Source: a bacterium (GTDB lineage Bacteria; Patescibacteriota; Saccharimonadia; Saccharimonadales; JAUPVS01). Taken from it: a stretch of 64,000 bases of DNA. A program made the position numbers and the translations under genes. This document shows, in pieces, positions 1,282 through 21,930 of this stretch; the first letter of the stretch is position 1, and the number at the start of each line of letters is the position of its first letter. The stretch covers positions 54,104-118,103 of the forward strand of contig JAKOXV010000018.1 in the NCBI GenBank assembly GCA_029780855.1, in the 5' to 3' direction. Under the pieces are notes generated by a model. That model was not told the origin of the DNA. It saw only the letters and a program-made list of their open reading frames with translations, and searched no databases.

Positions 1282-1378
1282 ATAAATTAGACCAACCAAA
1301 TATACTACATTTTACCCACAATTTAAAGTGTTAGGCACTTGCTTTTTTAGACATAAACAGGTATTATTTTGCGGTCTT

Positions 1379-1398
1379 GGGTGATTAGCTCAGCTGGC
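1379..1398 (+). repeat. Exact 20-nt copy of the 5' end of tRNA-Val (stub)
   Basis: GGGTGATTAGCTCAGCTGGC is identical to 1500-1519. The sequence diverges afterwards. Confidence 0.9.
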
Positions 1399-1499
1399 GC
1401 AGCTTGCTGCAAGAATAGAAAACCGCACACGGTGCTCTAGCCAAAAGTAAACTGAACTAGCACTACATAACCGGTACCCGTACATTACAAGACCAATTT

Positions 1500-1576
1500 G
1501 GGTGATTAGCTCAGCTGGCTAGAGCACCTCGTTTACACCGAGGGGGTCGGGGGTTCGAGTCCCTCATCACCCACCA
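1500..1576 (+). tRNA. tRNA-Val (anticodon TAC), CCA encoded
   Basis: 77 nt. Acceptor is GGGTGAT/ATCACCC. Anticodon arm is CCTCG-TTTACAC-CGAGG. T-loop is GGTTCGAGTCC. Confidence 0.95.
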
Positions 1577-1582
1577 CGCAAA

Positions 1583-1608
1583 GGGACCCCGAATATGGGG
1601 TCTTTTTG
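1583..1608 (+). terminator. Intrinsic terminator after tRNA-Val
   Basis: GGACCCC-GAATAT-GGGGTC followed by TTTTT. An outer stem extends back to the CCA end (CCACGCAAA / TTTGTGTGG). Confidence 0.75.
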
Positions 1609-1734
1609 TGTGGCTTTGTGCTCAAGTGGACTCGAACGGGATTGCCAGTGACAATCCCCGAACCCTGCTCGTCATATGCCAGTGGCATATGAAAGAGTTG
1701 TCTTGGCAAAACTAATTTTGTTTTGCCGGCAAGG

Positions 1735-1755
1735 CGAGTCCCTCATCACCCACCA
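1735..1755 (+). repeat. Exact 21-nt copy of the 3' end of tRNA-Val (stub)
   Basis: CGAGTCCCTCATCACCCACCA is identical to 1556-1576. Confidence 0.9.
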
Positions 1756-1763
1756 TACAAAGG

Positions 1764-1788
1764 CACTCACGTTATGTGAGTGTTTTTT
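1764..1788 (+). terminator. Second intrinsic terminator, after the tRNA-Val 3' stub
   Basis: CACTCAC-GTTAT-GTGAGTG followed by TTTTTT. Confidence 0.7.
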
Positions 1789-5044: not shown

Positions 5045-5063
5045 TGGTGGCTCCTCCCCAGAC
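5045..5063 (-). repeat. Copy of the 3' end of tRNA-Phe (stub, one extra C)
   Basis: TGGTGGCTCCTCCCCAGAC compared with 5181-5198 TGGTGGCTCCTCCCAGAC. Confidence 0.85.
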
Positions 5064-5145
5064 CTCAGCCTCCGGCTTCGCGCAACTCAGTTGGCGTCGA
5101 ACTGCTTTTGCTTTGCAAAAGCTCCAGTTCGTTCGGGAGAGCTTC

Positions 5146-5172
5146 ACGAAAAAACCCCACACAAGGTGGGGT
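5146..5172 (-). terminator. Intrinsic terminator after tRNA-Phe
   Basis: Plus strand reads AAAAAA-CCCCAC-ACAA-GGTGGGG. The minus strand shows a hairpin plus T-run immediately 3' of the CCA. Confidence 0.75.
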
Positions 5173-5180
5173 ATCTTTCG

Positions 5181-5256
5181 TGGTGGCTCCTCCCAGACTC
5201 GAACTGGGGACACAAGGCTCTTCAGGCCTCTGCTCTACCAACTGAGCTAAAGAGCC
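5181..5256 (-). tRNA. tRNA-Phe (anticodon GAA), CCA encoded
   Basis: Reverse complement is GGCTCTTTAGCTCAGTTGGTAGAGCAGAGGCCTGAAGAGCCTTGTGTCCCCAGTTCGAGTCTGGGAGGAGCCACCA, with anticodon loop CTGAAGA. Confidence 0.95.
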
Positions 5257-5374
5257 AAATTGGACTACTAATCATGCTTTTAATTTATGTGGCCGGCCTT
5301 CATCGCGCTCTAACGCTCGGCGGTTTGTAATTATACCGCCTTCGCTACTGACATCAAATTTAACAATTTGCTGT

Positions 5375-5412
5375 CATCAGGCCTCTGCGTTTGCGAACTG
5401 AGCTAAAGAGCC
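5375..5412 (-). pseudogene. Degenerate copy of the 5' half of tRNA-Phe (acceptor to anticodon loop)
   Basis: In sense orientation: GGCTCTTTAGCTCAGTTcgcaaacGCAGAGGCCTGAtGA versus the intact gene GGCTCTTTAGCTCAGTTggtagaGCAGAGGCCTGAaGA. Similarity stops in the anticodon loop. Confidence 0.8.
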
Positions 5413-6323: not shown

Positions 6324-8021
6324 CTAACCCTTGCCCCAAACGCTATTTAACGCTATAATCTCCCCTGTTCTAACCCAAAAAGGGAAAAGAGCAGCCCAAG
6401 CAAAAAACGCATTTTTTGCCCGGCGCGATGAGAAAAACCGTAGGTTTGTCTCATTACTATGCGAGACTAGCTCAGTTGATAGAGCGCTTCCTTGCCAAGG
6501 AAGAGGCCACGGGTTTGAGTCCCGTGTCTCGCACCAAATGTTTGAATTATGAGCCGCAAGGCTCTTTTTCTTTGTCTCAACGACTGTTCTAAAGGGGTCG
6601 TTGAGTATATAAGACAACTTCTTATCCTTTAGTTCAATGTTTGAAAGTACGTATTCTAGCAACTTCTGTCTAAGCCCCTCATCGCTCTCATTGAACAGCT
6701 GTTCAGCCCGTTGAGCCAAGTCTAACAGATAGGATGCAGTAACTTGAAAGTCTTTATTGTCGCTTGTTAGCAACTTTAGGCGGTCATTTAGCTCCTGCTG
6801 TTTCTTTTCTAGCTCAGTTGCAATTTCATCGTGGAATGTCTGTGTAATACGACCCTCAAGCAAGTCATAGTAAACCTTTCGCATTTTTTCCTTGAGTTTG
6901 TCGTACTCAGCACGGGTCTGCTCAATGTTTTGCGTGAAGTATAGCTGCTGGTCGTTATGACGGTTACGCAGCTCGGTAATGACTTTATCTAACCACTTCT
7001 CAGGCACGTCTATAAATCCTATATCTTCCGTAACCTTATCAATTACGAGGCTAACGGCTGTATTCGGATTATCGCACTTTGAGTTGGCACACCGCAAATA
7101 CACGGTGTTACGAGCCTTGAACGGCGATACTGCACGTCCGCATTTACCGCACTTCACTATCTTTTTCAGGGTAAAGTCTTTGCTGTCGTACTTAGTCATC
7201 TCGTGCTTACGCTCATCACGGACACGCTGTACCTGATTGTATAAGCCACGACTGATTAGCGGCGGGTACTTGTGCGGGTAGCGTCTGCCAGCGTGAACCA
7301 TAAAGCCGCAGTAAAACTCGTTGCTTAGTATTCGCTCAAGAAATTGTTTGCTTGGTGCTTTACTACCAGCAATGTTGCTACGAAAGCCCATCTCACGCAG
7401 TTCCTTAGCGATAACGGCGTATGAAATGCCTCTTGCTCGCATCTCGTAGGCTTTTACAATGTAGTGAGCCTTAGTGTCATCAACCTCAATGTCTTTGATA
7501 GGTTTCTGTGGCGTACCGCCTTTCAGGACGTTTTTGTAGCCAACAGGTGCTCTATGTACCCATATACCCTCACTGAGCATTTGTTCAAAGCGGCGTTTGA
7601 CGTTATCACGGATACTGTCTGAGTAGTATTTAGCCAGTGCCATACCAATACCAAGCCTGAACCAATCAGCTGCTGACGAGTTTTGGTCAATGTACAAACT
7701 GTCGTGTGGGAAGTGCAGCTCAATTTTTCCGAGCTTTACCAGCTGCTGCAATGCTTTTACTTCTTCTTGGCTACTATCACGGGTAAAGCGGTCTATCTTA
7801 TCAAAGACCACGTAACACAAGCCAGTTTGTTTGTGGATGTGTTCAACTAACTTTCCGAACTTCTGCCGCTCGTCTTTATGAGCACTTTCGTCAAACTCGT
7901 GATACTCGTATGGTAGTTTCTTCTGTTCGGCATATCTTTCAAGCCGTAACTTCTGAGCTGGCAACGCTTTTCGTTGCTCTATATCTGATACTCGTGCGAT
8001 TAGGATTATCTTTGCGTCCAT
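6324..8021 (-). CDS. Large serine recombinase (integrase)
   Basis: N-terminal resolvase domain with catalytic Ser context IILIARVSDIEQR. It also has a recombinase domain, a zinc ribbon CGKCGRAV...LRCANSKCDNPN, and a C-terminal coiled coil. The ORF has no stop until 6324, so the last roughly 70 codons run antisense through the tRNA-Gly gene. Confidence 0.85.
   Translation of the reverse strand: MDAKIILIARVSDIEQRKALPAQKLRLERYAEQKKLPYEYHEFDESAHKDERQKFGKLVEHIHKQTGLCYVVFDKIDRFTRDSSQEEVKALQQLVKLGKIELHFPHDSLYIDQNSSAADWFRLGIGMALAKYYSDSIRDNVKRRFEQMLSEGIWVHRAPVGYKNVLKGGTPQKPIKDIEVDDTKAHYIVKAYEMRARGISYAVIAKELREMGFRSNIAGSKAPSKQFLERILSNEFYCGFMVHAGRRYPHKYPPLISRGLYNQVQRVRDERKHEMTKYDSKDFTLKKIVKCGKCGRAVSPFKARNTVYLRCANSKCDNPNTAVSLVIDKVTEDIGFIDVPEKWLDKVITELRNRHNDQQLYFTQNIEQTRAEYDKLKEKMRKVYYDLLEGRITQTFHDEIATELEKKQQELNDRLKLLTSDNKDFQVTASYLLDLAQRAEQLFNESDEGLRQKLLEYVLSNIELKDKKLSYILNDPFRTVVETKKKSLAAHNSNIWCETRDSNPWPLPWQGSALSTELVSHSNETNLRFFSSRRAKNAFFAWAALFPFWVRTGEIIALNSVWGKG
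6461..6536 (+). tRNA. tRNA-Gly (anticodon GCC), CCA encoded; integration target (attL side)
   Basis: Acceptor GCGAGAC/GTCTCGC. Anticodon arm CTTCC-TTGCCAA-GGAAG. T-loop GGTTTGAGTCC. Confidence 0.95.
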
Positions 8022-8044
8022 AATGTTTACTCCTTACTAACTTA

Positions 8045-9235
8045 CTATAACTTACCAGTATTTTCAATGTTTGATAGAAACTCTGACATTTTCGTAGGTG
8101 TAAACCGCTGCAATGCCTCGTCTATATGCACAAACGCTGTATAGCGATGTGCTTGCGGTGCATTTAGCAGTGGCTTTATGCGATACCACGCTTGCTTGCC
8201 AAAGCGAGCCTCAAGCGTGTTTCGTAAGCCGACAACACCTGCCTGACTAGCAATGAGCATCCCTGCCACTGCTGCTAGTGCAGCTTGTGGGGTAACGTCA
8301 TCGTTTGCCTCAAGGTAGTTTTGTAAAAGCTCGTACGGCTGTTTTACGTCCAGTGCCAACATATCTACATTGGCTGTCAGCTTTTTCCAGTGCTTGAGTA
8401 GTATGTTTTGGCACAACTTCATATTGAATAGGCTTTCAAATGTCCATTGTTCTAAGTCTGGGTAGGCTCGCTTGATAGAGGCTCTACCGACAAAGCGTAC
8501 TTCATATCTGAATACTTCCATTGGTCGGTATTCGGATAGACCCTCAAGCAAATTGAGCTGCACCGAGCTGTCTTTTTCAAAAGCTCGTTTGTTGCTTTTC
8601 TTTGCTTTTAGCAAGTCAGCCATTTTGTCGTAAAAGGCTATATCAAGTGAGTTAGCGTGAATGTGTACGACGTGTCCATCACGAAAATCGGTCTTCTGAA
8701 AATCGTACGTCTTGCTTACATCCAGCTTGCCCATTGTATTGAGGATTGTTTGGCACGATGTGTAGTCAAGAAACACAATGTTCTTAGACGGATGCCAAGC
8801 TGAAATATCAGCGTGAGCAAGCTGTGGTTTGAAGAACCGATGACCGAGCAATTCGTGCAAAGCTGTCTGCAATGCGGTAAGCAGAGCGTCAAAGTCTTTT
8901 TCTTCTAGCTCATCAAAGTTGTTGCCAAACAACATCTTTGGTGCTGAAAACTCAACTGCCAATTCGTATGTTACTGCACCGAACTTTCGCACTCGCTTGT
9001 ACATTGTCAGTCGTGGCATATACTTGCCCATCTTGGCGTATGTAGGCGAGGGGTTGAGGAATGTCTTGCCATAGCCTCTGCTGTTTACGAGCTGCTCAAG
9101 TGTGATTGGCGTAAACCTGCTGCCATCAAAGACCAGCGGATTATGTACGGGTATGAGTAGTTTTACTGTGTCTACCATAGCGTTCATCACTTCTTTCAAA
9201 TAACTCAACGCACTTAGCAATAACTGCTTGCTCAA
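8045..9235 (-). CDS. Putative replication initiation protein (resembles phage/plasmid gene II/X-CRI type); otherwise hypothetical
   Basis: The segment MPRLTMYKRVRKFGAVTYELAVEFSAPKMLFGNNFDELEEKDF recalls the conserved block of phage CRI / gene II replication proteins. Recognition is from memory only. The start is uncertain (overlaps the upstream ORF; alternative ATGs at 9187 and 9178). Confidence 0.4.
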   Translation of the reverse strand: MSKQLLLSALSYLKEVMNAMVDTVKLLIPVHNPLVFDGSRFTPITLEQLVNSRGYGKTFLNPSPTYAKMGKYMPRLTMYKRVRKFGAVTYELAVEFSAPKMLFGNNFDELEEKDFDALLTALQTALHELLGHRFFKPQLAHADISAWHPSKNIVFLDYTSCQTILNTMGKLDVSKTYDFQKTDFRDGHVVHIHANSLDIAFYDKMADLLKAKKSNKRAFEKDSSVQLNLLEGLSEYRPMEVFRYEVRFVGRASIKRAYPDLEQWTFESLFNMKLCQNILLKHWKKLTANVDMLALDVKQPYELLQNYLEANDDVTPQAALAAVAGMLIASQAGVVGLRNTLEARFGKQAWYRIKPLLNAPQAHRYTAFVHIDEALQRFTPTKMSEFLSNIENTGKL

Positions 9236-9452
9236 TAACTCTGCCAGCCTCTTTGGTTACTGGGTAAAAGTAGTTGAGCTGGCGTGAGCCAACTTTCTTA
9301 GTTGGGTAGGTTATGCGATAGCCTGTGCCGTCTAGCCGCTGGTGTACGCCAAGCGAGCCAATGAACAACTGCCCATCAATCAGGCAGCTGGCAAAAGCTA
9401 CAAGTCCGTCAGTCGGTTTGACTGGCGTTATACTCACTTCGCTAACGGTCAT
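9141..9452 (-). CDS. SpoVG-like nucleic-acid-binding protein
   Basis: VSITPVKPTDGLVAFASCLIDGQLFIGSLGVHQRLDGTGYRITYPTKKVGSRQLNYFYPVTKEAGRVIEQAVIAK follows the SpoVG pattern: a beta-hairpin with 'G.l.A.asi.ld..f.v..i.v', then 'fv.mPs.k...g...d..hPi....r..i..avl'. Confidence 0.6.
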   Translation of the reverse strand: MTVSEVSITPVKPTDGLVAFASCLIDGQLFIGSLGVHQRLDGTGYRITYPTKKVGSRQLNYFYPVTKEAGRVIEQAVIAKCVELFERSDERYGRHSKTTHTRT

Positions 9453-9514
9453 TTTTCTTTCGCTCCATCGCTATTTCCTTATTGCTTGCCCAAGACCAAG
9501 CCGAAAGAAGTATG

Positions 9515-9733
9515 CTAATCAGTTTGTTGAGTGTTATTCGTAGTACCTTGTAGAAAATCATCACTTTCGTTCCTTTGTTCATTAGGTTGCCTTGAGGCAA
9601 AATCCATTTGTATAAGCACGTCAAAGAAACCAGTAAGGTTGTGGATTGCCTTATCGCTCAACTCAGCAGCCACGCCATCGTTTGCGGCGTTATCTTGTGG
9701 TTCTGCTGGTAGTGGTTTATTCTTCGTTGCCAT
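9515..9733 (-). CDS. Small acidic hypothetical protein (72 aa)
   Basis: ORF only. It is in the same orientation as the flanking element genes. Confidence 0.35.
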   Translation of the reverse strand: MATKNKPLPAEPQDNAANDGVAAELSDKAIHNLTGFFDVLIQMDFASRQPNEQRNESDDFLQGTTNNTQQTD

Positions 9734-9820
9734 ATAAAAAGTAGCCTCACTAACGAGACTACTTGCACGGCATACGAGCCAACCTAGACGCTCACTGGCT
9801 CACATTTCGCTCACATTTTA

Positions 9821-11716
9821 CTACTGATATTTTGTCTGTATTCGTACTTTTCCAGCTTTGAACTTTAACAGTTTCTCTATACCCAAGTCGTTCTTAACTC
9901 TTTTGTTTACCCTCAAGTGAGCGTCATAAACCGCACGTTGGCTGTCTTGGCTTTTTGGCGAGTATTCCAAAATGTCATCCTCTTTCGCAGCCACTCTACG
10001 GTTTCTAAAGACGAGCTTGCACATATAATGTTCTATCGTTTCGTCAGGTATCTCGCACGTCTTACCCGTGAATGTCAGCTTACTGGCTTTTGCGTCAAAC
10101 CTTACTTTATCCTGACCCGTTGGTTCTGGCTTTGGCTCAGACTTAGCATTTGGCTGCTCTTTGGCAGGTTCTTTACTTTGGGTCTCAGTTTTTGGCTCTT
10201 GGTTGTATTTTGCTGCTGTCTTTTCTAAACGCTTTTCAAAGTTGGCGTTCAGACGAGCCTTTTCTTTACGATGCTCCGCAATGGCTTTATCCGTGTCATC
10301 TAATACCCGTTGCTCATCTTCTTCTAACTTGAATGCTCCAACTCCATCAGCCTTTTCAACCCAAAGTCGTTCTAGCTTGCCATAAAAGCCCCATAGCTCA
10401 GGTCGCATAAACTCGTATCCAATATCCAAGTCTTCCATATTGCCCATAAAGGTATCGTATATAGACGGCTTTTCTTCACGTAATTTAGCAAACTCATCTT
10501 GGGCGAGTATTTTGTCTATTCTAATTGTGAGTAGCAGATAACTACGATTGAGTAAGCCGTCTTCAAAACCTACATAACCGAATGACATTGCATCGTATAC
10601 TTCGCATATCTTGCCCCAAAAAATCATTAGCATCTGCATATCACGCAAATGACCCAAGTTGTTCTTTAGCTCATCAAAAGCGGTTTTTTGATGCTCAGTA
10701 AGCTCAAGTTCATAAGACTGCTTATCAGCAGTTGTCTTCGGACGACCTTTGACGACAAATGTTTTACTACCTGAATACTGGTCAATAAACTCGTTTACCT
10801 GCTTGAAGCTCAGCGGCTTGAATGACGATAAAGGTACACGAATTGGTTTCTGGTCGTTGTCGCCAAACGCTTTACCGACTACTGCCATAAAGAGTATCAG
10901 GCGTTCTTGTTCAGATGTTGCTGCAATGGTTTCGCTATTATCTTCTAGTTTTGGCTTATTGTCTGTTTTTTCCTCTGCAACATTATCATCAAAATGAGCG
11001 GGAGCATCATCGGGATAGTTAGGTTGCGGTTTCGGTTCTTTGTCTATGACTAGCTTTTTCGTCAATGCAGCAGTTTTACTGTTTGGCGAGTTGGTAATTA
11101 GCTCCAAGAATACCGCATCAAACCTACGACGACTTGCCGTTACTTTGTACAGCTGAGTTGTGCTGTTCGGCGATGGCTTGTACAGCTCGTAAGAGTTGAT
11201 AGCACCAACCTCTTTGAGAAACCTTAGTGCCTTAGAGTGTATCTGCTTGATGTGGTATAGCGATAGGCTCTTTTCGTGTACGCCTTTCCAAAGGGTCGCA
11301 GTGCTTTTGTCTGCCTCAAATGTTGCAATACCATCAGTGCGGATGTTTAGTTCTTGGTTTATCAGTTCGGCTACTGCATAAATCCGATAGTAGTTGTCGT
11401 GCGTTAGGTTTTTAACGCCAAAACGGTTAGACGCATAAATCGTGTCGTAATACTCATCAAAACTTGGCAGTACCTCAATTTTATAATTTGAGTAGTTCGG
11501 TCTATCGGCTCTAATTACATTGCCAGTTGGCTTTTCAAGTAACCTGACAATTCCATCGGCTGCTAACTTCTCAAGAATTGTTTTTAGCTCAAGTCTTGTT
11601 ACTTTTTCCTTGTCTATTGCATCGGGGTCTAAAAAACAAGGCTGGCTGTCAGCACTAAGTTGGTTTGCGGTATCAATTTGACCGAGCAGGTATAGTATTT
11701 TTTCTGTGGCGTTCAT
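9821..11716 (-). CDS. Large hypothetical protein of the element (about 631 aa), with a K/E/P-rich region in the C-terminal quarter
   Basis: Long uninterrupted ORF. Start taken at the ATG (MNATEK) preceded by AGAGAAG. No motif recognised. Confidence 0.6.
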   Translation of the reverse strand: MNATEKILYLLGQIDTANQLSADSQPCFLDPDAIDKEKVTRLELKTILEKLAADGIVRLLEKPTGNVIRADRPNYSNYKIEVLPSFDEYYDTIYASNRFGVKNLTHDNYYRIYAVAELINQELNIRTDGIATFEADKSTATLWKGVHEKSLSLYHIKQIHSKALRFLKEVGAINSYELYKPSPNSTTQLYKVTASRRRFDAVFLELITNSPNSKTAALTKKLVIDKEPKPQPNYPDDAPAHFDDNVAEEKTDNKPKLEDNSETIAATSEQERLILFMAVVGKAFGDNDQKPIRVPLSSFKPLSFKQVNEFIDQYSGSKTFVVKGRPKTTADKQSYELELTEHQKTAFDELKNNLGHLRDMQMLMIFWGKICEVYDAMSFGYVGFEDGLLNRSYLLLTIRIDKILAQDEFAKLREEKPSIYDTFMGNMEDLDIGYEFMRPELWGFYGKLERLWVEKADGVGAFKLEEDEQRVLDDTDKAIAEHRKEKARLNANFEKRLEKTAAKYNQEPKTETQSKEPAKEQPNAKSEPKPEPTGQDKVRFDAKASKLTFTGKTCEIPDETIEHYMCKLVFRNRRVAAKEDDILEYSPKSQDSQRAVYDAHLRVNKRVKNDLGIEKLLKFKAGKVRIQTKYQ

Positions 11717-11762
11717 CACTTCTCTCAAAACACGTTTCTGGTAAGTCGTGTATAGTTATAGT

Positions 11763-11966
11763 ATGACACAATCAGGAAAAAAAGAGCCGAAGCTACTCAC
11801 GCTCAAACAGGCGTGTGAACTGCTGAATTGTCATCCAAACACGCTACGTGCGTGGGATGAAAAAGGTTACTTAGTTGCTGTGCGTTTTGGAACACGTCGT
11901 GATAGGCGATATAAACGGGAAGATGTGATGAAGTTATTGGAAAAAAATGACACAAGAAAAAACTGA
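11763..11966 (+). CDS. Excisionase/MerR-type helix-turn-helix DNA-binding protein
   Basis: LLTLKQACELLNCHPNTLRAWDEKGYLVAVRFGTRRDRRYKREDV is the excisionase-family HTH_17/MerR pattern. It is divergent from the replication genes. Confidence 0.75.
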   Translation: MTQSGKKEPKLLTLKQACELLNCHPNTLRAWDEKGYLVAVRFGTRRDRRYKREDVMKLLEKNDTRKN

Positions 11967-12816
11967 CACAACAAGTGAAAGCATAGAAACCGAACACGTA
12001 ACGCCACAATCAAAAAGTGGTCTTAGTAAACATATCAAGATAACTTTAGGGATTGTCGGGGCTTTATTGCTCATTCCTCTTTCTTACGCTGGTTATGTCT
12101 ATGCCGCCTCGCCAGCCGTCATACGCAACCCGAAGCTAGAACACTATCATTTCCGTATGCAAATACTGGTAAACGGCAAAGCCGAAGACTTTAGTAGCAA
12201 GGCTTACCAGACTGGCTATGCTAAAGACCAGTGCAATGCTAACTTGCCTGAACAACCAATCCACTTTCACGACAATAAAGACCAGTTTACTCATATCCAC
12301 TGGGAAGGTATGACGGGTGGTATGGTTATGAAGTATTACGGCTGGAACTATATCGGTGGTATGAGCAACGCACTTGGCTACAAGCTGGATAATCTCAAAG
12401 ACCCGCAAAAGGTAACAACTCACGGCAATTACCTACCAGCCGTACCAAAAGACGCTACTTTCTATGTCTACACGGGCGATGAGAACAGCTACAAAGAACG
12501 TACTTTCAACGACTGGAAAAGCCAAGACTTAGAAACCTTTTTCGGCACTACCAGTAATTTCCCAGCTCACGACATAAACAAAGGCAAGAAGACGAGCTTA
12601 CTAGATACGTTGTTCCCGAAAGCCTACGCACACGGCACAGAAAATGACGGAGATGGCAACGATGGTAGTGAAACCGATCAAGAAAAGCGAACACGCATCA
12701 ACAACCTCGTTGGCAGTGTCGTTGTATTCGTGCAAAAAGACAAGCCAACCGACCAGCAAGTCAAAGACCGATTTAATAAACTACTGCCCCTAGATGACAG
12801 TACGTGTGGGGGTTAA
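11947..12816 (+). CDS. Membrane-anchored exported protein, His/Trp-rich, unknown function (289 aa)
   Basis: N-terminal TM ITLGIVGALLLIPLSYAGYVYA. Contains HYHFRMQ..., IHFHDNKDQFTHIHWEGMTGG, and a C-terminal DDSTCGG. Its stop lies 2 nt before the CDF start. Confidence 0.55.
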   Translation: MTQEKTDTTSESIETEHVTPQSKSGLSKHIKITLGIVGALLLIPLSYAGYVYAASPAVIRNPKLEHYHFRMQILVNGKAEDFSSKAYQTGYAKDQCNANLPEQPIHFHDNKDQFTHIHWEGMTGGMVMKYYGWNYIGGMSNALGYKLDNLKDPQKVTTHGNYLPAVPKDATFYVYTGDENSYKERTFNDWKSQDLETFFGTTSNFPAHDINKGKKTSLLDTLFPKAYAHGTENDGDGNDGSETDQEKRTRINNLVGSVVVFVQKDKPTDQQVKDRFNKLLPLDDSTCGG

Positions 12817-12818
12817 AA

Positions 12819-13709
12819 ATGAGCCATAATCACGACCAAAACAATAACGATGGAAGTATCAAGTTCGGGCTAGTTCTGAACACTGGCTTTACCATTGTTG
12901 AGTTTATCTTCGGCATACTGACAGGCAGCCTTGCTCTTATAGCAGACGCTGCTCATAACCTGACAGATACCTTTACACTCTCAGTATCATTTATCGCAAA
13001 CCGTCTTGCACGGCGTGAAGCAAATGACAGTAAAACCTTTGGCTATGGACGTGCAACGATACTCGCTGCCTTGCTCAATGCTACTGTAATGCTGGCTGTT
13101 GCAGCCTTTATCGTCATTGAGGCTGTTCAACGGCTTGGCAATCCGCACCCCGTAGAGGGCGGTGTCGTGGCTGCTGTGGCGTTTGTCGGCATACTGGTAA
13201 ATGGCTCAATCGCTATTGTTCTGTCCAAAAACCGCAAAGACTTGAATATGCGGAGTGCCTTTGTAGATATGGCGTTTGACGCACTATCTTCACTCGGAGC
13301 TGTTATAGCTGGTCTGATTATCTGGCTCACAGGCATAACTTGGGTAGATAGTGCCGTAGGTTTAGTGATTGCTGCCTTATTGGTCTACAACACGCTCAAA
13401 ATACTACGTGAAGCGGTGCAAATACTACTTGAGGGTACGCCAAAAGACTTGGATACTGCAGCAATAACCCAAGCCATTACTGATACTGACAAAGTATTAT
13501 CCGTAGACGATATGCACGTCTGGGCTATCCGCTCAGGTTATAACGCTCTAAGCTGCCATATTGCGATTGATGAAACTGACCTAAAAGACAGCCGAAACAT
13601 TGTAGAGGTTGTAAAAGCCAAGCTACGCAAAGACTACGATATTCAACACGCTACGATTGAAGTTGAGCTAGAAGACTGTACCAAGCACGACGAACACGAG
13701 CGACATTAG
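12819..13709 (+). CDS. Cation diffusion facilitator (CDF) family divalent-metal efflux transporter
   Basis: His-rich N-terminus MSHNHDQ, TM2 motif LALIADAAHNLTDT, TM5 VDMAFDALSSLG, and a C-terminal cytoplasmic domain ending HDEHERH. Confidence 0.9.
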   Translation: MSHNHDQNNNDGSIKFGLVLNTGFTIVEFIFGILTGSLALIADAAHNLTDTFTLSVSFIANRLARREANDSKTFGYGRATILAALLNATVMLAVAAFIVIEAVQRLGNPHPVEGGVVAAVAFVGILVNGSIAIVLSKNRKDLNMRSAFVDMAFDALSSLGAVIAGLIIWLTGITWVDSAVGLVIAALLVYNTLKILREAVQILLEGTPKDLDTAAITQAITDTDKVLSVDDMHVWAIRSGYNALSCHIAIDETDLKDSRNIVEVVKAKLRKDYDIQHATIEVELEDCTKHDEHERH

Positions 13710-13720
13710 GGCAATGAAGT

Positions 13721-14671
13721 ATGAAGCTGAGAAAGTATCTTACTATCAGTCGCAGCCAGTTCGTTGAAGCCTCGCTGATAACGGCTCTACAAAGCTGTTC
13801 TGATAAATCGCCAGTTAAACTGATTGAACACTGCAATTCGCTCAACAATAGCTATAAACGACGTAACTACACAACTGTTGCCATTGTCATACGAGGGGTG
13901 CTTGATTACATACCGACCATTTTTGGTTTTGCAAATACTACTCAGGTTTACTCAGAATTACAGGGTAGGCGAACATTCAAGGACGCATTGAAGCAGCTTG
14001 ACCAAGCCAGTCGCAACCTTGCTGATGATGGTTTGCACAGTCCAGCTCGTAAAGATGAAACACTCAAAGTTAGTAAGCTGACTGTTGATAATCTACAAGG
14101 AAACCTTGCTATTGTGCTGAGTGAAACAGCCACACAACTACGAACAAAGGATTTGCGTGACGACGGAAATGCCAAGTTAGACGAGCAAAGAGCCGTAAAA
14201 CCCAAGCGACAAAAGTCGCAGCTGGAAACCTTTGAGGATTACATTGTAAATAAGCAATGGACTGAGCAGGAACTAGATGGCGATACGGTTTGGATTTGCG
14301 AAACGGATAACCTCTACCAAATACACAGCCGAGGCGATTATGACGAGTTTAGTGAGCTGTGGACACAGGTTTATCCTGATAAAAACGGTTCAGGTAAGCA
14401 TAGCGTTGACCTTGTATATGCTGGCACAATCATCAAGCGGTTTACGTTCATCTACTGTGACGGCGGTCGTATAAGTGTAGTTATGCCTGAGCTTTATATA
14501 GCACCAGAGCATCGTATTCCAAATAAAGACTGGAACGACAAAACAGATTACCGTGAGTATTTCTGGAAAAAGGACAGTATCAAGTTCAAGTTGATGAAGC
14601 TCATCGGTAGTTTTTACATCTACAACACGCCAGAGGGTGTGGCTAAACACTCAAACATACAGATAAAATAG
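13721..14671 (+). CDS. Hypothetical protein (316 aa)
   Basis: ORF between the CDF and csoR modules. No motif recognised. Confidence 0.5.
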   Translation: MKLRKYLTISRSQFVEASLITALQSCSDKSPVKLIEHCNSLNNSYKRRNYTTVAIVIRGVLDYIPTIFGFANTTQVYSELQGRRTFKDALKQLDQASRNLADDGLHSPARKDETLKVSKLTVDNLQGNLAIVLSETATQLRTKDLRDDGNAKLDEQRAVKPKRQKSQLETFEDYIVNKQWTEQELDGDTVWICETDNLYQIHSRGDYDEFSELWTQVYPDKNGSGKHSVDLVYAGTIIKRFTFIYCDGGRISVVMPELYIAPEHRIPNKDWNDKTDYREYFWKKDSIKFKLMKLIGSFYIYNTPEGVAKHSNIQIK

Positions 14672-14777
14672 CCGTCCAGAAAACGCTTGGCAAAGTTGCC
14701 CCCAAAAATTGGGTACTTATACGGCGGAGTACCTACAACAGATATAAGGGGAGACTACCCCCCTACTAACACGCCGT

Positions 14778-14806
14778 TTGCATAGTACCCCTAGGGGGTA
14801 TATAGT
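14778..14806 (+). promoter_or_regulatory. Sigma70-type promoter with an embedded CsoR-type operator
   Basis: TTGCAT (14778-83), a 17-nt spacer, then TATAGT (14801-06). The spacer is the GC-rich inverted repeat TACCCCTAGGGGGTA (14786-14800), closely resembling known CsoR boxes (TACCC..GGGGGTA type). A second G/C-tract pseudo-palindrome lies at 14747-14765. Confidence 0.65.
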
Positions 14807-14813
14807 AAGAGGT

Positions 14814-15098
14814 ATGATAGGCGATATAAAACAGCGTGCTTTGCACCGAGCCAAGATACTTGAGGGTCAAATGCGTGGTGTTCAGAAGATGATTGAAAAC
14901 GAAGACTACTGTATGGACATACTCACGCAGAGCCTGGCTATTCAAAAGTCTATTGGCTCACTCAATAAGCTGATACTTGAAAACCACGTGCGAACGCACA
15001 TTAAAGAGAACCTTAGTTCAAGCTCCGAAGACGAACAAGAAAAAGCAGTAGCCGAATTGTTAGAACTGTACGAGCTAACAAACGTAAGGGGTAAATAG
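14814..15098 (+). CDS. csoR: CsoR/RcnR family metal-sensing transcriptional repressor
   Basis: KQRALHRAKILEGQMRGVQKMIENEDYCMDILTQSLAIQKSIGSLNKLILENHVRTHI is the DUF156 pattern, including the conserved Cys in YC.D.L.Q and a His in the last helix. Confidence 0.9.
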   Translation: MIGDIKQRALHRAKILEGQMRGVQKMIENEDYCMDILTQSLAIQKSIGSLNKLILENHVRTHIKENLSSSSEDEQEKAVAELLELYELTNVRGK

Positions 15099-15100
15099 CC

Positions 15101-15469
15101 GTGAAGCTATTAACAGCTATTAAAAACACCCTTGTTCTATTGGCTGTTGTGTTACTAAACTCGCTTACCTTTGTTGGTCATTCAGCGGCAATGAGCACAA
15201 TGTCGCACGAAATGGGCGGTATGAAACATACTTCAAGCGATGCAACTTCGTGTGCAACTCTTTGCCGCACAGCAGTTGTTAACAAAGAAGAAAACGCCAT
15301 TCGGAGCGATGAGAACGAAGATGATGACGAGCCAGCCTTGCCGTTCTATGCTCAAAACCAACAGTTGTACTTAGATAGTAAATCTATATCTCAGCGGCTA
15401 TACGCAGCCGAAATAAAACCGCCGCCAAAGATACCGATTTACATACTCTATGGTGTATTCAGAGCGTGA
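15101..15469 (+). CDS. Secreted Met/His-rich small protein (putative Cu-binding)
   Basis: GTG start and a signal-like LVLLAVVLLNSLTFVGHSAA. Then MSTMSHEMGGMKHTSSDATSCATLC. Its position is between csoR and DUF305. Confidence 0.55.
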   Translation: MKLLTAIKNTLVLLAVVLLNSLTFVGHSAAMSTMSHEMGGMKHTSSDATSCATLCRTAVVNKEENAIRSDENEDDDEPALPFYAQNQQLYLDSKSISQRLYAAEIKPPPKIPIYILYGVFRA

Positions 15470-15519
15470 GATTTTGTTTGTACTAACAAGCAATTCCTAA
15501 ACGTAACTTTGGAGAACCT

Positions 15520-16185
15520 ATGAAGAAGAACAATATAATCATCGTCGCTATCGTGGCAGTCGTTGCTATTGCTGGCGTAAGTATTTACGCAATAAGCAAG
15601 AATAACGACAAAAATATGATGGACGATAATATGATGGGCAACAACTCATCGCAACAATCAGCAAGCGGAACAGTAGATAAAAACTCATCCGAATACAAGA
15701 TGTACAGCGAGCTAAAGGGCGAAGACTATGACCGAATGTTTCTTGCCAATATGATTGCCCACCATCAGGGTGCAGTTGATATGGCAAACCTCGCACTGAC
15801 CAGTGCCAAACACCAGGAAATTAAAGATATGGCAAACAACATCATATCGGCTCAAACCAAAGAAATTGGTGATATGCAAAGCTGGCAATCGTCTTGGGGT
15901 TATCCTGCCAGCAGCGGCTCTATGATGGAAGACCACTCGTCAATGGGAATGATGAACGATATGGCTGGTATGACCGATAAACTCAAGGGTTTGTCTGGGG
16001 ATGCGTTTGATAAAGCGTTTCTATCTTCAATGATTGAGCACCATCAATCGGCTATCAATATGGCATATCCTGGACAAACAAATGCTCAACACGAGGAAGT
16101 AAAAATACTAACAAAAGCTATCGTTGATGCACAGAGCAAGGAGATTGCCCAAATGCAGCAGTGGCAAAAAGACTGGGGCTACTAA
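15520..16185 (+). CDS. DUF305 domain protein (duplicated four-helix metal-related domain)
   Basis: Two repeats of D..FL..MI.HHQGA..MA (YDRMFLANMIAHHQGAVDMA and FDKAFLSSMIEHHQSAINMA), plus an N-terminal TM/signal. Confidence 0.85.
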   Translation: MKKNNIIIVAIVAVVAIAGVSIYAISKNNDKNMMDDNMMGNNSSQQSASGTVDKNSSEYKMYSELKGEDYDRMFLANMIAHHQGAVDMANLALTSAKHQEIKDMANNIISAQTKEIGDMQSWQSSWGYPASSGSMMEDHSSMGMMNDMAGMTDKLKGLSGDAFDKAFLSSMIEHHQSAINMAYPGQTNAQHEEVKILTKAIVDAQSKEIAQMQQWQKDWGY

Positions 16186-16194
16186 GGAATAAAT

Positions 16195-16704
16195 ATGAAA
16201 GACAAAGTATTTTACGGGTTTCTAGCACTCGTGGTCGTTGGTTTTTTGGGGTTTGCAGTTGCCAATAAAGCACCTGAAAAGCCTAGACCAGGAACAGAAC
16301 ACCAAGATAATGGTCGTAAGCACGTGCAATCAAAGAAGTATGGTGGCGATGAGCCGCCTACTTCTGGCGACCACGCAGAGCCTTTAGCTTGGCAAGTCTA
16401 CGACCAAGAAGTACCTGATGCGAATGTGATACACAATATGGAACACGGCGGTGTCTATATTTCATATCGTCCTGACCTGCCAAAAGACCAAATAGACAAA
16501 ATCAAGGCATTGTTTTCAAAACCTTACTCAAATGCAAAGTTCAGCCCGACAAAGGCAATTGTTGCACCTCGTGCTGAGGATAAAGCACCAATTGTAATGT
16601 CATCGTGGACACGCAGTGAGAGTTTTCAGAGTTTTGATGAGGCTAAGATGATTGAATACTACTTGGCAAATATAGGTAAAAGTCCAGAACCAGGAGCAAG
16701 CTAA
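16195..16704 (+). CDS. DUF3105 domain protein
   Basis: N-terminal TM, then PPTSGDHAEPL...NMEHGGVYISYRPDLP...APIVMSSW, which matches the DUF3105 pattern as I recall it. Confidence 0.7.
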   Translation: MKDKVFYGFLALVVVGFLGFAVANKAPEKPRPGTEHQDNGRKHVQSKKYGGDEPPTSGDHAEPLAWQVYDQEVPDANVIHNMEHGGVYISYRPDLPKDQIDKIKALFSKPYSNAKFSPTKAIVAPRAEDKAPIVMSSWTRSESFQSFDEAKMIEYYLANIGKSPEPGAS

Positions 16705-18737
16705 TGGAACACTCGCACCACGCACACCAACACAGTGAACACCAAGAACACGACAAACACGCTGGTCATTCAGTTGCTATGTTCAAGGATAAGTTCTGGC
16801 TATCGTTTATTTTGACCATACCCGTACTAGCATATAGCGAGATGATACAGCACTGGTTGAACTTTACGCCGCCAGCATTTCCTGGCTCGCAGTATGTGCC
16901 GTTTGTCCTAAGTACCATCATATTCTTTTACGGCGGTACGGTGTTCATCAAGGGTGCGTGGAACGAGTTAAAAGCCAAATTGCCAGGTATGATGACGCTT
17001 ATCAGCCTGGCAATTATCACAGCTTACGTGTATAGCGTTGCAACGCAGTTTTGGCTATCAGGCGAGGGTTTCTTTTGGGAGCTAGCAACTTTGGTAACCA
17101 TTATGCTGCTAGGGCATTGGCTTGAAATGGCATCGGTAGCAAAAGCCGAGGGTGCTTTAGATGCCATATCTAAACTACTGCCTGATAAAGCTGAAAAGTT
17201 AGTCAACGGAAAGCCAAAGCAAGTCTTGGTTAGCGAGCTGAAAGTTGGCGACTTAGTATTGATACGTCCTGGCTCTCGCATTCCTGTTGATGGCGTAATC
17301 ACAGATGGTAAATCGTCAATTGATGAAGCTGCTATCACTGGCGAAAGTAAACCAGTAAGCAAATCTGTAAATGATGAGGTTGTCGCTGGTACGGGCAACC
17401 AAGACGGCTCGCTGACCGTAAAGGTTACGAAAATCGGTCAAGATACAGCACTCGCAGGAATTATGCGGCTTGTTGCCGAAGCTCAAAGCTCAAAATCAAA
17501 TGTGCAGGTACTGGCAGATAAGGCAGCATTTGCCCTTACTATCATTGCTATTGCAACAGCTATCATTACTTTTATTTACTGGGTGTTTGCTAAAGATACG
17601 GCTTTCGCACTTGAACGTTCGGTAACAGTTTTGATTATCGCCTGTCCTCACGCACTTGGCTTAGCAATCCCACTGGTTGTTTCAATTTCAACTGCTATAT
17701 CTGCACGAAGCGGCTTGCTTGTCCGCAAGCGTCTGGCACTGGAAGCGGCTCGCAACCTAGACTGGGTACTTTTTGATAAGACGGGTACGCTTACTAAAGG
17801 CGAACACGGCGTAACGGATATTTGGGCTACAAAAGGTTATACCGAGGAAGATATTTTGCACCTAACCGCTAGTCTTGAGCAGAACAGTGAACATATCGTA
17901 GGTAAAGGCATAGTCGGCGAGGCAACTAAAAGGCACGTTCATTTAGATAAAGTTGAAGACTTTGCCGCTCTGCCTGGTTTGGGTGTTAAGGGCAAATTGC
18001 ACGGTAAAGATAACTTCGTAGCGGCAAGTTATCGTTATATCAAAGAAAATAAACTCAAAGTTCCTGATGATATTGAGCGGTATTCAAAGCAAGCCGCTAA
18101 GGACGGTAAAACTGAGGTTTATTTGATTAAAGATAACCAGTTAGTTGTGGGGGCAATTGCTCTGGCTGATGTTATCCGTGAGCAGTCAAAGCAAGCCATT
18201 GCTGCACTTAAAGCCGAGGGCGTAAAGACTGCAATGGTAACTGGCGACAGCCAAGATGTAGCGGCTTATGTTGCAAAGCAGCTTGGCTTAGACCAGTATT
18301 TTGCTGAGGTGCGACCAGAGGATAAGGCGACAAAGGTTAAAGAATTACAGCGAACTGGCAGCAAAGTGGCATTTGTTGGCGATGGAATAAACGATGCACC
18401 TGCACTAACAACCGCTGATATTGGTATGGCTATCGGTGCTGGCACGGATGTAGCAATCAAATCAGCTGACATTATATTGGTTAAAAGCGACCCAAGAGAT
18501 GTGATAAGGGTAATCCACTTGTCCAAAGCGACTTATCGTAAGATGGTTCAGAACCTGGCGTGGGCTACTGGCTATAATGTGGTAGCTATTCCGCTTGCGG
18601 CAGGTGTGCTTTACGGTTCAGGTATTGTCTTATCGCCAGCGGTTGGAGCTGTTCTAATGTCGCTATCAACTGTGATTGTGGCTATCAATGCTCAGCTGCT
18701 AAGGCGTGTTCACTACCATCCAGGTCATAGCCACTAA
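16704..18737 (+). CDS. copB: Heavy-metal P1B-type ATPase, CopB-like (P1B-3 signature)
   Basis: His-rich N-terminus [24 protein letters not shown] motif CPH ([11 protein letters not shown]). [21 protein letters not shown](x4)P (GYNVVAIP) and MSLST in the last helices, the subgroup 1B-3 hallmarks. Confidence 0.9.
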
Positions 18738-18883
18738 GCATTTACTTCAATTTGGCATAAAAAATAGGCATTGCTGCCTAGTTGTTTGAAAGTCTGAGCG
18801 TGTTTTATATCAAGTTATCCGCTAATCTAAATTGTTCAGCCAGATGTTTTAGCTTATAATCCTCTTGAGCAAGCGTAGCTGCC

Positions 18884-18912
18884 GTTTGAAATGCGTCAAC
18901 TATGCTGCACCA
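18884..18912 (+). repeat. 29-nt direct repeat, copy 1 (ends in tRNA-3'-end-like ...CTGCACCA)
   Basis: GTTTGAAATGCGTCAACTATgCTGCACCA, 28/29 identical to 19821-19849. Confidence 0.9.
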
Positions 18913-18955
18913 TTACAACCCAAACGTTTTTTGCCCAGAGAGCTTTCAAACATTT

Positions 18956-18977
18956 AGACCCTTCCGGGTCTTTTTTG
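18956..18977 (+). terminator. Intrinsic terminator upstream of the NTase gene
   Basis: AGACCC-TTCC-GGGTCT followed by TTTTTT. Confidence 0.65.
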
Positions 18978-18990
18978 TTAAGATTGATTT

Positions 18991-19767
18991 ATGAACAACT
19001 TGTTGCCAATTGATTTTAAAGACGAACGTGGGCGAAAAGTTTTTGAAGAAGTAATTGAAAATCTTCCAGAAGACGTTGAAGTTTACCTTATTGCAGGCAG
19101 TCTACGAAACGCAATTGATAGACATTTTCATAGCGGCAGCAAATTAGAGCAGCGAGATTATGACCAAATTGTTATTAAAGGTAGCGATAAGTACCTTGCC
19201 TACCTAAAAAATCTTGGCTTTTATGACGGACGCATTCAGCGACCAACGCAAAAAGTGCAAATCAAATCATTTGTAGGCAATGAAGACCCAGAAGATTTTG
19301 CAAACAACCTTGTTTTTGACATTCATCTAATGGACGGCACGGATGTTCTAGACAACCTCAAAAATCACGTCGGATTAAAAGTAAACGGCAACGCAATCTC
19401 TATTAGGGACATATTTTCTGATGACTGGCAGAATAAACTCGTTTCATTACCAGGTGCATTGCAGTCTATTGAAAAGAAGCAGCTGAAACTAAACCCCGAA
19501 GGCTACAAACACCAAGCGGCAAATTTGTTTTCAGTGATAAGGTTCGTGCATAATGGCTATGAGCCGCCTAGAAAAGAAGACATAATGCTGCTGGTTCAAG
19601 AGCTGCCACGAGTTGAAGATGACCGGTACGAAAAGAATGTACAAAAGGTTTATAAATACGTTGGCGGTGAAGAAAACGCTCGCAAGATTTGCCAAGAGAT
19701 AGGCATAGATTTTAATGTATTTGATAAACAGGCGGTAATCAAGAGATTAAGTCAGGAGACAAATTAA
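18991..19767 (+). CDS. Nucleotidyltransferase-fold protein resembling the head domain of CCA-adding/poly(A) polymerase enzymes (258 aa)
   Basis: VYLIAGSLRNAIDRHF...RDYDQIVIKG parallels the vYLVGGaVRD...kDiDi motif of PolyA_pol/CCA enzymes. A further acidic DIHLMDGTD follows. Assignment is from motif memory only. Confidence 0.45.
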   Translation: MNNLLPIDFKDERGRKVFEEVIENLPEDVEVYLIAGSLRNAIDRHFHSGSKLEQRDYDQIVIKGSDKYLAYLKNLGFYDGRIQRPTQKVQIKSFVGNEDPEDFANNLVFDIHLMDGTDVLDNLKNHVGLKVNGNAISIRDIFSDDWQNKLVSLPGALQSIEKKQLKLNPEGYKHQAANLFSVIRFVHNGYEPPRKEDIMLLVQELPRVEDDRYEKNVQKVYKYVGGEENARKICQEIGIDFNVFDKQAVIKRLSQETN

Positions 19768-19770
19768 AGA

Positions 19771-19797
19771 TAGCCGCAAGATGGGCTAGTTTTTTGT
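19771..19797 (+). terminator. Intrinsic terminator after the NTase gene
   Basis: TAGCC-GCAAGATG-GGCTA followed by GTTTTTTG. Confidence 0.55.
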
Positions 19798-19820
19798 TGT
19801 TGTATTCTTCTATTGCAGAT

Positions 19821-19849
19821 GTTTGAAATGCGTCAACTATCCTGCACCA
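19821..19849 (+). repeat. 29-nt direct repeat, copy 2
   Basis: GTTTGAAATGCGTCAACTATcCTGCACCA. Confidence 0.9.
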
Positions 19850-19887
19850 ATAAGAATGCCCCACCTTGCGTGGGGTTTTCTTATTGG
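19846..19887 (+). terminator. Two-tier terminator hairpin starting at the CCA of repeat copy 2 (same design as genuine tRNA terminators here)
   Basis: CCAATAAGAA-tg-CCCCAC-CTTGC-GTGGGG-t-TTCTTATTGG. Confidence 0.6.
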
Positions 19888-19999
19888 TCTGTGGACGCAC
19901 GGACGCAAAACCGTGAAATTGCGAAGCAATTTGGGTTTGATAATTTGTTTGCTCTCGCAGGAGTTTGCTCCGAGAAAGCAGGCAAATTTCCGGTTATTA

Positions 20000-20014: not shown

Positions 20015-20058
20015 TGCTAAAATCATAAACATTAAACTGTAAAAATTAGGAGTAAAAA

Positions 20059-21906: not shown

Positions 21907-21930
21907 TTCACTACCCTAAGTAACCAGCTC

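Follow-up and report, generated by a model that had tools for sequence, protein, structure and literature searches.

Partial copies of a tRNA-Val gene in a Saccharibacteria contig and their possible origin from small gene-restoring insertion modules

A tRNA-Val(TAC) gene lying between partial copies of itself was found in a stretch of 64,000 nucleotides (contig JAKOXV010000018.1, positions 54,104 to 118,103; hereafter the window) from a bacterium of the class Saccharimonadia. The window has a G+C content of 46% and contains seven tRNA genes. The tRNA-Val gene was recognized by ARAGORN and by Rfam at the position given in an earlier reading of the DNA without database searches (the sequence-only reading; Table 1). 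It is flanked by direct copies of its two ends, termed stubs. The 5' stub, 102 nt upstream of the intact gene, repeats the first 20 nt, as described before, and additionally the two nucleotides preceding them. The repeat of the last 21 nt was likewise exact; the similarity of this 3' stub extends to position 1766 (91% identity over 32 nt, with 8 of the last 11 nt matching). Exact repeats of 20–22 nt within 250 nt cannot be due to chance. The stubs lack tRNA positions 21–56, and no gene was found inside the spacers 1399–1499 (101 nt) and 1577–1734 (158 nt). The two flanking units, each comprising a stub, an interior, and an inverted piece of the gene, are referred to below as the upstream and the downstream module.

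Table 1. Features of the tRNA-Val locus and of the other tRNA loci discussed (positions in the window)
Feature	Position	Strand	Evidence or remark
Candidate native promoter of the displaced 5' end: TTGCTT, 17 nt, TATTAT	1339–1367	+	by eye
5' stub: TT and tRNA-Val positions 1–20, break in the D-loop	1377–1398	+	exact 22 nt, identical to 1498–1519
Interior of the upstream module: hairpin GCAGC-TT-GCTGC (1399–1410), then A-rich stretch	1399–1430	+	order common to relatives
Inverted copy of tRNA-Val positions 17–29	1431–1443	−	exact 13 nt, reverse complement
Spacer probably brought with the upstream module; possible −10 box TACATT (1481–1486)	1444–1499	+	analogy with relatives
Intact tRNA-Val(TAC)	1500–1576	+	ARAGORN; Rfam tRNA model, 67 bits
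Terminator 1, extended palindrome	1574–1613	+	18 pairs, then T run; the gene's CCA pairs with TGG
Inverted T-arm copy GGACTCGAAC, reverse complement of tRNA positions 54–63	1627–1637	−	51 nt past the gene
Interior of the downstream module (family A), hairpins 1638–1658, 1673–1691, and 1705–1727	1638–1734	+	homology and fold
3' stub: tRNA positions 57–77 (1735–1755) and 11 nt of diverged trailer	1735–1766	+	exact 21 nt
Terminator 2, CACTCAC-GTTAT-GTGAGTG, then T6	1764–1788	+	plain in the sequence; hairpin scan gave the minus strand only
tRNA-Phe stubs, both ends	3' 5045–5058; 5' 5377–5412	−	5' pseudo-copy reaches the anticodon loop
Large serine recombinase ORF (Resolvase, Recombinase, and zinc-ribbon domains)	6324–8021	−	beside tRNA-Gly 6461–6536 (+)
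tRNA-Leu(TAA), 3' stub only	22385–22403		
Family C copy in the pseudo-copy upstream of tRNA-Leu(CAG)	24295–24380	−	about 87 nt
tRNA-Leu(CAG), 5' pseudo-copy only, positions 1–65	24380–24446		

In the upstream module, the inverted piece, which is one nucleotide longer than the perfect 12-mer noticed at first (1431–1442), spans the D-loop, the 3' strand of the D-stem, and the start of the anticodon stem. This is the segment next after the break of the stub, and the two overlap by just 4 nt. The candidate promoter in front of the stub ends 9 nt before the 22-nt repeat; its −35 box fits at three of six positions, and it was not reported by the promoter scan. It is possibly the native promoter of the displaced 5' end. 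The possible −10 box in front of the intact gene is comparable to TATAAT-like boxes 14–20 nt before the gene in two related loci (L013 tRNA-Val and L019 tRNA-Ala; L numbers designate the loci compared). In the downstream module, the two hairpins with CCAGTG-containing loops described earlier were found again, as GCCAGTG hairpins, in front of a third one. Folding of the region 1615–1760 as RNA predicted a closing helix GGACUCG/CGAGUCC around the three hairpins (z = −5.0). Its left arm is the inverted T-arm copy, and the pairing partner (1735–1743) is located in the stub. The fold of the whole upstream module was unremarkable (z = −1.4). Each unit has a terminator of its own, as had been proposed.

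Several simple identities of the spacers were rejected. A tRNA pseudogene on the minus strand was dismissed, since its CCA-like end is the palindrome of terminator 1 and its T-loop-like piece the inverted arm copy. When 1377–1790 was compared by blastn with 50,697 phage and 72,556 plasmid records, only the tRNA body gave matches; the similarity to mobile elements for which the sequence-only reading had proposed a search was therefore not found among these records. Rfam scans of the window at the gathering threshold and at permissive thresholds returned nothing but tRNAs, and with E-values up to 10 nothing credible was obtained over 1100–1900, 22000–24600, and L048 17550–17850.

Misjoining of reads at a repeated tRNA is a virtually negligible explanation. 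The Logan contigs of sample SRR15686344 do break at 1220 and 1547, inside tRNA genes. However, one of these independent contigs (L002) is identical to the window from 1547 onward and contains the exact gene end, the spacer, the 3' stub, terminator 2, and the sequence beyond. The other (L001) stops at 1220, and 1221–1546, including the 5' stub, is not covered by an independent contig. Moreover, many independently assembled sequences, long contigs and complete chromosomes among them, show the same architecture with homologous interiors. Exact-protein look-ups gave matches confined to short Logan contigs from one sample, and a search for homologues of the neighboring ORF 1868–2227, aimed at orthologous loci, gave none.

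Relatives were identified via the LemA protein encoded beside the locus (505–1065), the best match in Candidatus Saccharibacteria genomes showing 83% identity. A first set comprised 80 species-level Saccharibacteria loci with 10-kb flanks and 250 tRNAs (ARAGORN). Each tRNA was compared with its own 600-nt flanks, and non-cognate tRNAs were compared with the same flanks as a control. With cognate tRNAs, 73 partial copies were found, versus 8 with non-cognate ones. Without exception, direct copies upstream of a gene cover the tRNA from position 1 to position 13–65, and those downstream extend from position 54–72 to the 3' end. Copies are carried by 36 of the 250 tRNAs, about one in seven; the other 214 have none. 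In an enlarged set (201 loci, 2.03 Mb, 413 tRNAs), in which modules were counted only if their stubs were exact, 52 downstream modules were found on 20 isoacceptors and 35 upstream modules on 17, more than 20 isoacceptors in total, with nine tRNAs carrying both. Here, the downstream stubs begin at positions 54–60 (64–76 in long-arm tRNAs), mostly 144–189 nt past the gene.

The inverted pieces are located between stub and gene and cover the tRNA segment beside the break of the stub, as exemplified by L011 tRNA-Ala (direct 1–19, inverted 19–31) and L023 tRNA-Phe (direct 1–37, inverted 37–52). An exact inverted T-arm copy lies 43–74 nt past the gene in 34 of the 52 downstream modules. The general order is a distal direct stub, a conserved interior, the inverted copy of the neighboring arm, a promoter or terminator, and the intact gene. 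The 40 nt following the CCA are unlike between gene and stub in 48 of the 52 downstream modules, and the block of identity is therefore the tRNA part alone, as expected if incoming DNA carries its own terminator. Given these strict rules, the tRNA-Val locus of the window is a textbook case of a lineage-wide pattern, which supports and widens the earlier claim of a genome-level pattern. Of that claim's further detail, that the same layout recurs at three other tRNAs of the window, only a part held: four of the seven tRNA genes carry partial copies, but both stubs are present only at tRNA-Phe besides tRNA-Val, while tRNA-Leu(TAA) has only a 3' stub and tRNA-Leu(CAG) only a 5' pseudo-copy. No stubs were found at the tRNA-Gly, tRNA-Cys, and tRNA-Leu(GAG) genes of the window.

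Empty sites are frequent. As many as 19 of 25 tRNA-Val(TAC) genes in related genomes are without a partial copy, and many empty tRNA-Leu(TAA) loci exist. The stubs and spacers at tRNA-Val are thus not conserved syntenic intergenic DNA, and the stub-free orthologous loci that the sequence-only reading had asked for do occur. Its view of the stubs as junction duplications of DNA inserted at a tRNA gene is supported. In the closest relative (L003), tRNA-Val directly follows tRNA-Leu(GAG), with one terminator and no stubs. The load is highest in a few genomes, where most of it is concentrated, with 5 of 5 tRNAs carrying copies in L027 and 4 of 7 in both L013 and the window. Of the hallmarks of an integrative element, the tRNA-Val locus displays tRNA-derived direct repeats, an intact gene, and empty sites in relatives; an internal integrase gene is absent.

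The interiors fall into families that are shared between genomes. Family A includes the downstream interiors of tRNA-Val in the window, tRNA-Val in L071, and tRNA-Leu(TAA) in L030 (65-nt insert). These have in common the order inverted T-arm, hairpin with GCCAGTG loop, variable hairpin, GGCAAAAC/GTTTTGCC hairpin, and stub, and their stems show compensatory changes. In family B, the region 22236–22440 at tRNA-Leu(TAA) of the window is homologous to the spacer at tRNA-Val in L027, including the terminator past the stub, and the acceptor part of each stub fits the local tRNA. The upstream module of tRNA-Val belongs to a small family (alignment A3; L013 tRNA-Val, L011, L013, and L019 tRNA-Ala, L114 tRNA-Arg, and L146 tRNA-Lys) in which a stub that ends in the D-loop is followed by a short hairpin, an A-rich stretch, an inverted D-arm piece, and a spacer with a −10-like box 14–20 nt before the gene. 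Two identical 175-nt units follow each other in L163, a tandem array is also present in L149, and nested copies occur in L027, L098, and others. In L128, a metal-resistance cargo of 4.1 kb is located between tRNA-Gln and its stub. By their sequences, the spacers are compact elements of constant size, whose interiors are kept between distant genomes and tRNA types.

These results bear on two ideas of the sequence-only reading. The first, that a single cassette split an older gene, was ruled out; upstream and downstream types occur apart elsewhere (e.g., the upstream type at L013 tRNA-Val and the downstream type in L030), and the two modules are independent. The second was that the stubs are the scars of an element that lost nearly its entire interior. 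In this case, the genes of prophages or islands would have been deleted and only the arms flanking the attachment sites would remain. Real islands are indeed located between tRNAs and stubs or at tRNAs (the cargo of L128 and the recombinase island at tRNA-Gly of the window), and partial tRNAs together with remnants of degenerate elements have been described in Prochlorococcus (bioRxiv 10.1101/2020.12.28.424599). Nevertheless, we regard such decay as distinctly unlikely. When occurring independently, it would yield neither a uniform spacing of 144–189 nt in dozens of loci, nor interiors alike in sequence and structure across distant genomes and tRNAs, nor perfect tandem repeats of a small unit. 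No pseudogene fragments are visible in the spacers, and the helices of at least one family covary.

This covariation was analyzed for family C, a copy of which is located upstream of tRNA-Leu(CAG) in the window (Table 1). Family C recurs in several Saccharibacteria loci and, according to a pattern scan, in at least 125 copies on at least 120 metagenome contigs (family C loci L087–L206). A scan of viral contigs with a 17-mer of the family gave only four unrelated matches to high-GC coding sequences. The alignment A2 of 50 non-identical copies (87 positions) was folded by RNAalifold into four helices with compensatory changes in 24 of 32 pairs. Paired cells account for 98.8%, versus 82% in shuffles and 25–42% in slid controls, and 242 double compensatory changes compare with 56 in shuffles; none of 500 shuffles reached the observed values. 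The last helix had served as an excision filter, and the second was partly predetermined by the search pattern, whereas the first and third helices are free of this selection bias. One G-U pair is conserved, and G-U pairs (67) exceed A-C pairs (4), which identifies the tRNA-sense strand as the folding strand. The family C model matched the downstream core of tRNA-Val only weakly and on the minus strand (15 bits, E = 0.1), whereas the GCCAGTG loops favor the plus strand. The two families A and C are architecturally similar, but homology is not claimed as proven.

Nearly all copies of family C lie inside the T-loop or D-arm of a tRNA copy that is truncated and has an intact gene beside it. In the usual arrangement, family C directly follows the 5' strand of the T-stem and T54 of the tRNA copy. 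Other locations are the D-arm in copies of tRNA-Gly and tRNA-Pro, further copies of family C itself, and a few contexts outside tRNAs. The latter include repeats ending in CAGAGGG and sequences resembling other structural RNAs (L103, L167, L169, L180, L126, and L199). When family C was excised from 104 metagenome copies, a whole tRNA resulted in just one case (L196, where an intact gene adjoins); the element is therefore not an intron of working genes. An intron or intervening sequence was ruled out on the same grounds, the T-loop left by excision also being one base short. The lone exception is the complete tRNA-Val(GAC) of L048 (17614–17777, +), with TATAAT upstream, whose T-loop is split by family C and of which no intact copy is present within the 20-kb locus. 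After removal of the insert, ARAGORN recognizes a tRNA, but its T-loop has 6 nt and the CCA is not encoded. The gene may be dead, or the insert may be a real intervening sequence.

The strand-specific covariation could indicate that the units are functional small RNAs or leader or trailer elements, in which a structured core and a mimic of the tRNA end are under selection. Such RNAs might sequester or pair with a tRNA strand, serve as a processing or decoy substrate, or provide a decoy attachment site that shields the gene. In line with this, the stubs are exact although the adjoining trailers diverged, each downstream module is closed by its own terminator, and upstream stubs still sit behind the old promoter region. 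On the other hand, the distribution is patchy, with most orthologous sites empty, several unrelated interior families are found at the same position, and nested and tandem copies occur. The downstream modules follow a strong terminator without a visible promoter, and, as mentioned earlier, the fold of the upstream tRNA-Val module is not unusual. A purely functional role is thus considered unlikely. A related, equally minor possibility combines structure and mobility. The cores, i.e., family C and looser kin such as the three-hairpin core at tRNA-Val, would be structured RNAs, catalytic or guiding a recombinase, that license their own insertion into D- and T-loops. The element would then be specific to Patescibacteria and free of protein genes, and the stubs would represent working anatomy rather than scars.

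The direction of insertion could be read at another locus. The empty tRNA-Leu(TAA) of L067 has a single terminator, and its homologue in the filled locus L053 (family C-like core) is the distal terminator. The insert in L053 therefore begins in the T-loop of the gene, ends where the core ends, and supplied the proximal 3' end together with its terminator. By analogy with this pair, tRNA-Val positions 1–20 and 57–77 are probably module-derived, the middle of the gene would be native, and terminator 2 would be the native terminator. With moderate confidence, we thus propose that the tRNA-Val gene is flanked by two independent, protein-free insertion modules that restore the gene, the stubs being the displaced native ends. 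It also seems somewhat probable that these modules are members of a large family of mini-elements that target tRNA genes in Saccharibacteria and other Patescibacteria. Insertion into the D-, anticodon-, and T-loops, as known from integrase-borne islands but miniature and gene-free, is the best-supported scheme, and entry presumably proceeds by site-specific recombination in the loop.

According to this insertion model, the upstream module (about 120 nt) would enter the D-loop after position 20 and bring positions 1–20 together with a promoter-bearing spacer. The downstream module (about 180 nt) would enter the T-loop after position 56 and bring positions 57–77 with its own terminator. As each module would supply a copy of the end it displaces, the gene would stay whole. 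The native 5' end would be pushed outward with the old promoter region and the native 3' end with the old terminator, resulting in the two stubs. In the downstream module, the inverted arm copy would pair with the stub and close the three-hairpin domain. By mirror symmetry, a promoter and the proximal 5' end would come with upstream modules; TATAAT lies past the core in the tRNA-Leu(CAG) module of the window as well as in L062 and L192. Tandem arrays, nested copies, and the cargo of L128 fit repeated insertion at tRNA genes.

A local replication error involving no mobile element was also considered, namely snap-back template switching at two bounding hairpins (the tRNA arm and the terminator) followed by remodeling. 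Tandem inversion duplications, i.e., direct-inverted-direct triplications of host DNA, are known from Salmonella. The arms are arranged in this order in 34 of the 52 downstream and 18 of the 35 upstream modules, the junctions are located at palindromes, and four modules have the same terminator on both sides. A perfect direct repeat of 95 nt in L030 (7006–7281), which comprises the tRNA 3' end, the terminator, and the left-arm hairpin around a 65-nt family A core, points in the same direction; either the event is very recent or the unit has been partly duplicated in tandem. However, in a tandem inversion duplication nothing foreign lies between the copies, whereas the interiors found here are foreign and shared with other genomes. 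Template switching cannot supply such non-tRNA interiors kept between genomes, homologues of which were already found for the tRNA-Val locus, nor can it supply the differing terminators of 48 of the 52 modules. Nor is the conserved left-arm hairpin of family B derived from the host. We consider this explanation very unlikely.

Several points weigh against the insertion model. No recombinase, transposase, or any other ORF was found inside the modules, and a site-specific recombinase is unlikely to act through a DNA circle of 120–200 bp. To our knowledge, elements integrating into tRNA genes rebuild only the 3' part. A module that rebuilds the 5' part would need a promoter of its own, and such promoters are only guessed. 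We know of no integrase model in which an inverted arm copy has an established role. The strand-specific structural conservation of family C suggests a functional RNA and is left unexplained by insertion. In the four downstream modules with identical gene and stub terminators (L030, L156, L163, and L204), the identity indicates local duplication. The metagenome set was picked by the family C pattern, and detection by exact matches favors young copies. The polarity at tRNA-Val rests on analogy, the neighboring ORF 1868–2227 having no homologues for a direct comparison. Finally, L113 and L186 share the same upstream module, but a recombinase is encoded in L186 and not in L113.

If an enzyme acts on the modules, a large serine recombinase is a candidate on circumstantial evidence, maybe acting in trans or moving the modules with larger islands. 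Its ORF converges on or overlaps the tRNA beside family C in seven metagenome loci, often crossing the tRNA in antisense, and it is the sole recurrent enzyme of mobile DNA near family C copies, among whose protein neighbors no cluster of transposases or reverse transcriptases was found. A recombinase gene at the element junction is present at these seven loci and at tRNA-Gly of the window. At the tRNA-Val locus, no such gene is located at the junction; the nearest is that at tRNA-Gly.

The modules resemble tRNA-targeting integrative elements such as prophages, genomic islands, and tycheposons in being inserted in a stem-loop of the tRNA gene, in carrying the displaced gene part so that the gene remains intact, and in leaving a partial tRNA at the far junction. 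The breaks of the modules in the anticodon loop and the T-loop agree with sublocations reported for classical integrases. Unlike such elements, the modules are only 120–200 nt long and contain no integrase or other gene, many of them rebuild the 5' part and thus have to supply a promoter, breaks in the D-loop are common, and each module has an inverted copy of the neighboring arm as well as a conserved structured non-coding interior. In the tycheposons of Prochlorococcus, partial tRNAs flank integrated elements, integrations are successive, and remnants are scattered; here as there, repeated insertions appear to push older copies outward and remnants build up (bioRxiv 10.1101/2020.12.28.424599).

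In having att-like direct repeats without recombination genes, the modules also resemble cis-mobilizable elements (CIMEs) and other non-autonomous elements flanked by attachment sites. CIMEs of streptococcal integrative and conjugative elements (ICEs) carry att-like direct repeats, lack recombination genes of their own, and could be mobilized by the recombinase of an element that is adjacent or integrated in tandem. Unlike the modules, they are kilobases long and recognizably ICE-derived. For the modules, no parent element sharing the interiors was found, and mobilization was not observed. Miniature inverted-repeat transposable elements (MITEs) and small palindromic repeats found in RNA genes of reduced genomes, such as the Rickettsia palindromic elements, match in size (about 100–200 nt), in their many copies across a lineage, in a strong hairpin potential, and in the location inside structural RNA genes. 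The short inverted ends GGACTCG/CGAGTCC of the downstream module (GGACTCG(AAC) 1628–1637 and CGAGTCC 1735–1741) may correspond to terminal inverted repeats, although the right arm is inseparable from the copy of the tRNA T-loop. Unlike in MITEs, there is no short target-site duplication of fixed length; the repeats comprise 14–65 nt, are gene-specific, and always reach the tRNA end. In addition, the module restores its target gene, and the covariation is strand-specific with a conserved G-U pair.

Intron-containing and split tRNA genes of archaea likewise have extra sequence in the D-, anticodon-, and T-loops and fragments beside conserved flanks, but removal of the insert here rarely restores a tRNA (1 of 104 copies and L048, with a T-loop one base short), and an intact gene adjoins nearly all copies. 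A full-text literature search found no description of such modules. New are their size, the lack of a gene, the restoration of 5' as well as 3' parts, the breaks in the D-loop, the inverted arm copy, and the structured cores.

Saccharibacteria and other Patescibacteria have tiny genomes with few recognized mobile elements. If mobile, the modules would be the smallest known gene-restoring integrative elements and a ready marker of recombination hot spots and islands, given that metal-resistance islands occupy these sites as well. Should the cores be working RNAs, family C would be a widespread, strongly covarying RNA absent from Rfam. Under either reading, tRNA annotation and island prediction in the phylum should allow for stubs. 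The loci also provide concrete candidate attachment sites for recombinases in the newly tractable Saccharibacteria.

Some observations concern the surroundings of the tRNA genes. The genes tRNA-Leu(GAG) (1195–1281, −) and tRNA-Val (+) are divergent in the window and in L062, whereas in most relatives they are arranged in tandem on the same strand, 15–30 nt apart, indicating an inversion that has a break point between them. At tRNA-Phe (window 5045–5412, −; L071, L023, and L027), the upstream module breaks in the anticodon loop at position 35–37, and its interior GTAGCGARG ... CGAGCGTTAGAGC is kept at the same tRNA in at least four genomes. A second stub reaching from the T-loop to the CCA is located 11 nt past tRNA-Gln(CTG) in L186 (380–415) and recurs at the same tRNA-Gln in L113 and L143; this extra stub is present both in a locus with a recombinase island and in an island-free locus.

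The recombinase ORF of the window shares 35% identity with the L196 protein. Before its stop codon, it runs antisense across the entire tRNA-Gly gene, and the last ~70 residues correspond to the antisense of the tRNA and its leader. In L143, L186, and L196, the homologous ORFs converge on the tRNA and overlap it in the same way. The region of roughly 15 kb between tRNA-Gly and tRNA-Cys (about 6540–22040) looks like an island with the recombinase at its edge. It contains several ORFs without a Pfam match, a cation-efflux protein (12804–13709), a DUF305 protein (15520–16185), and a P-type ATPase (16704–18737); similar metal-resistance cargo is also found in L128, between tRNA-Gln and the stub. 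In relatives (L038), the tRNA-Phe, tRNA-Gly, tRNA-Cys, and tRNA-Leu(TAA) genes are all located within about 0.6 kb of one another. In the window, tRNA-Cys and tRNA-Leu(TAA) (22041–22202) abut at 22114/22115 without a spacer, and the corresponding spacers of relatives range from 0 to more than 1000 nt.

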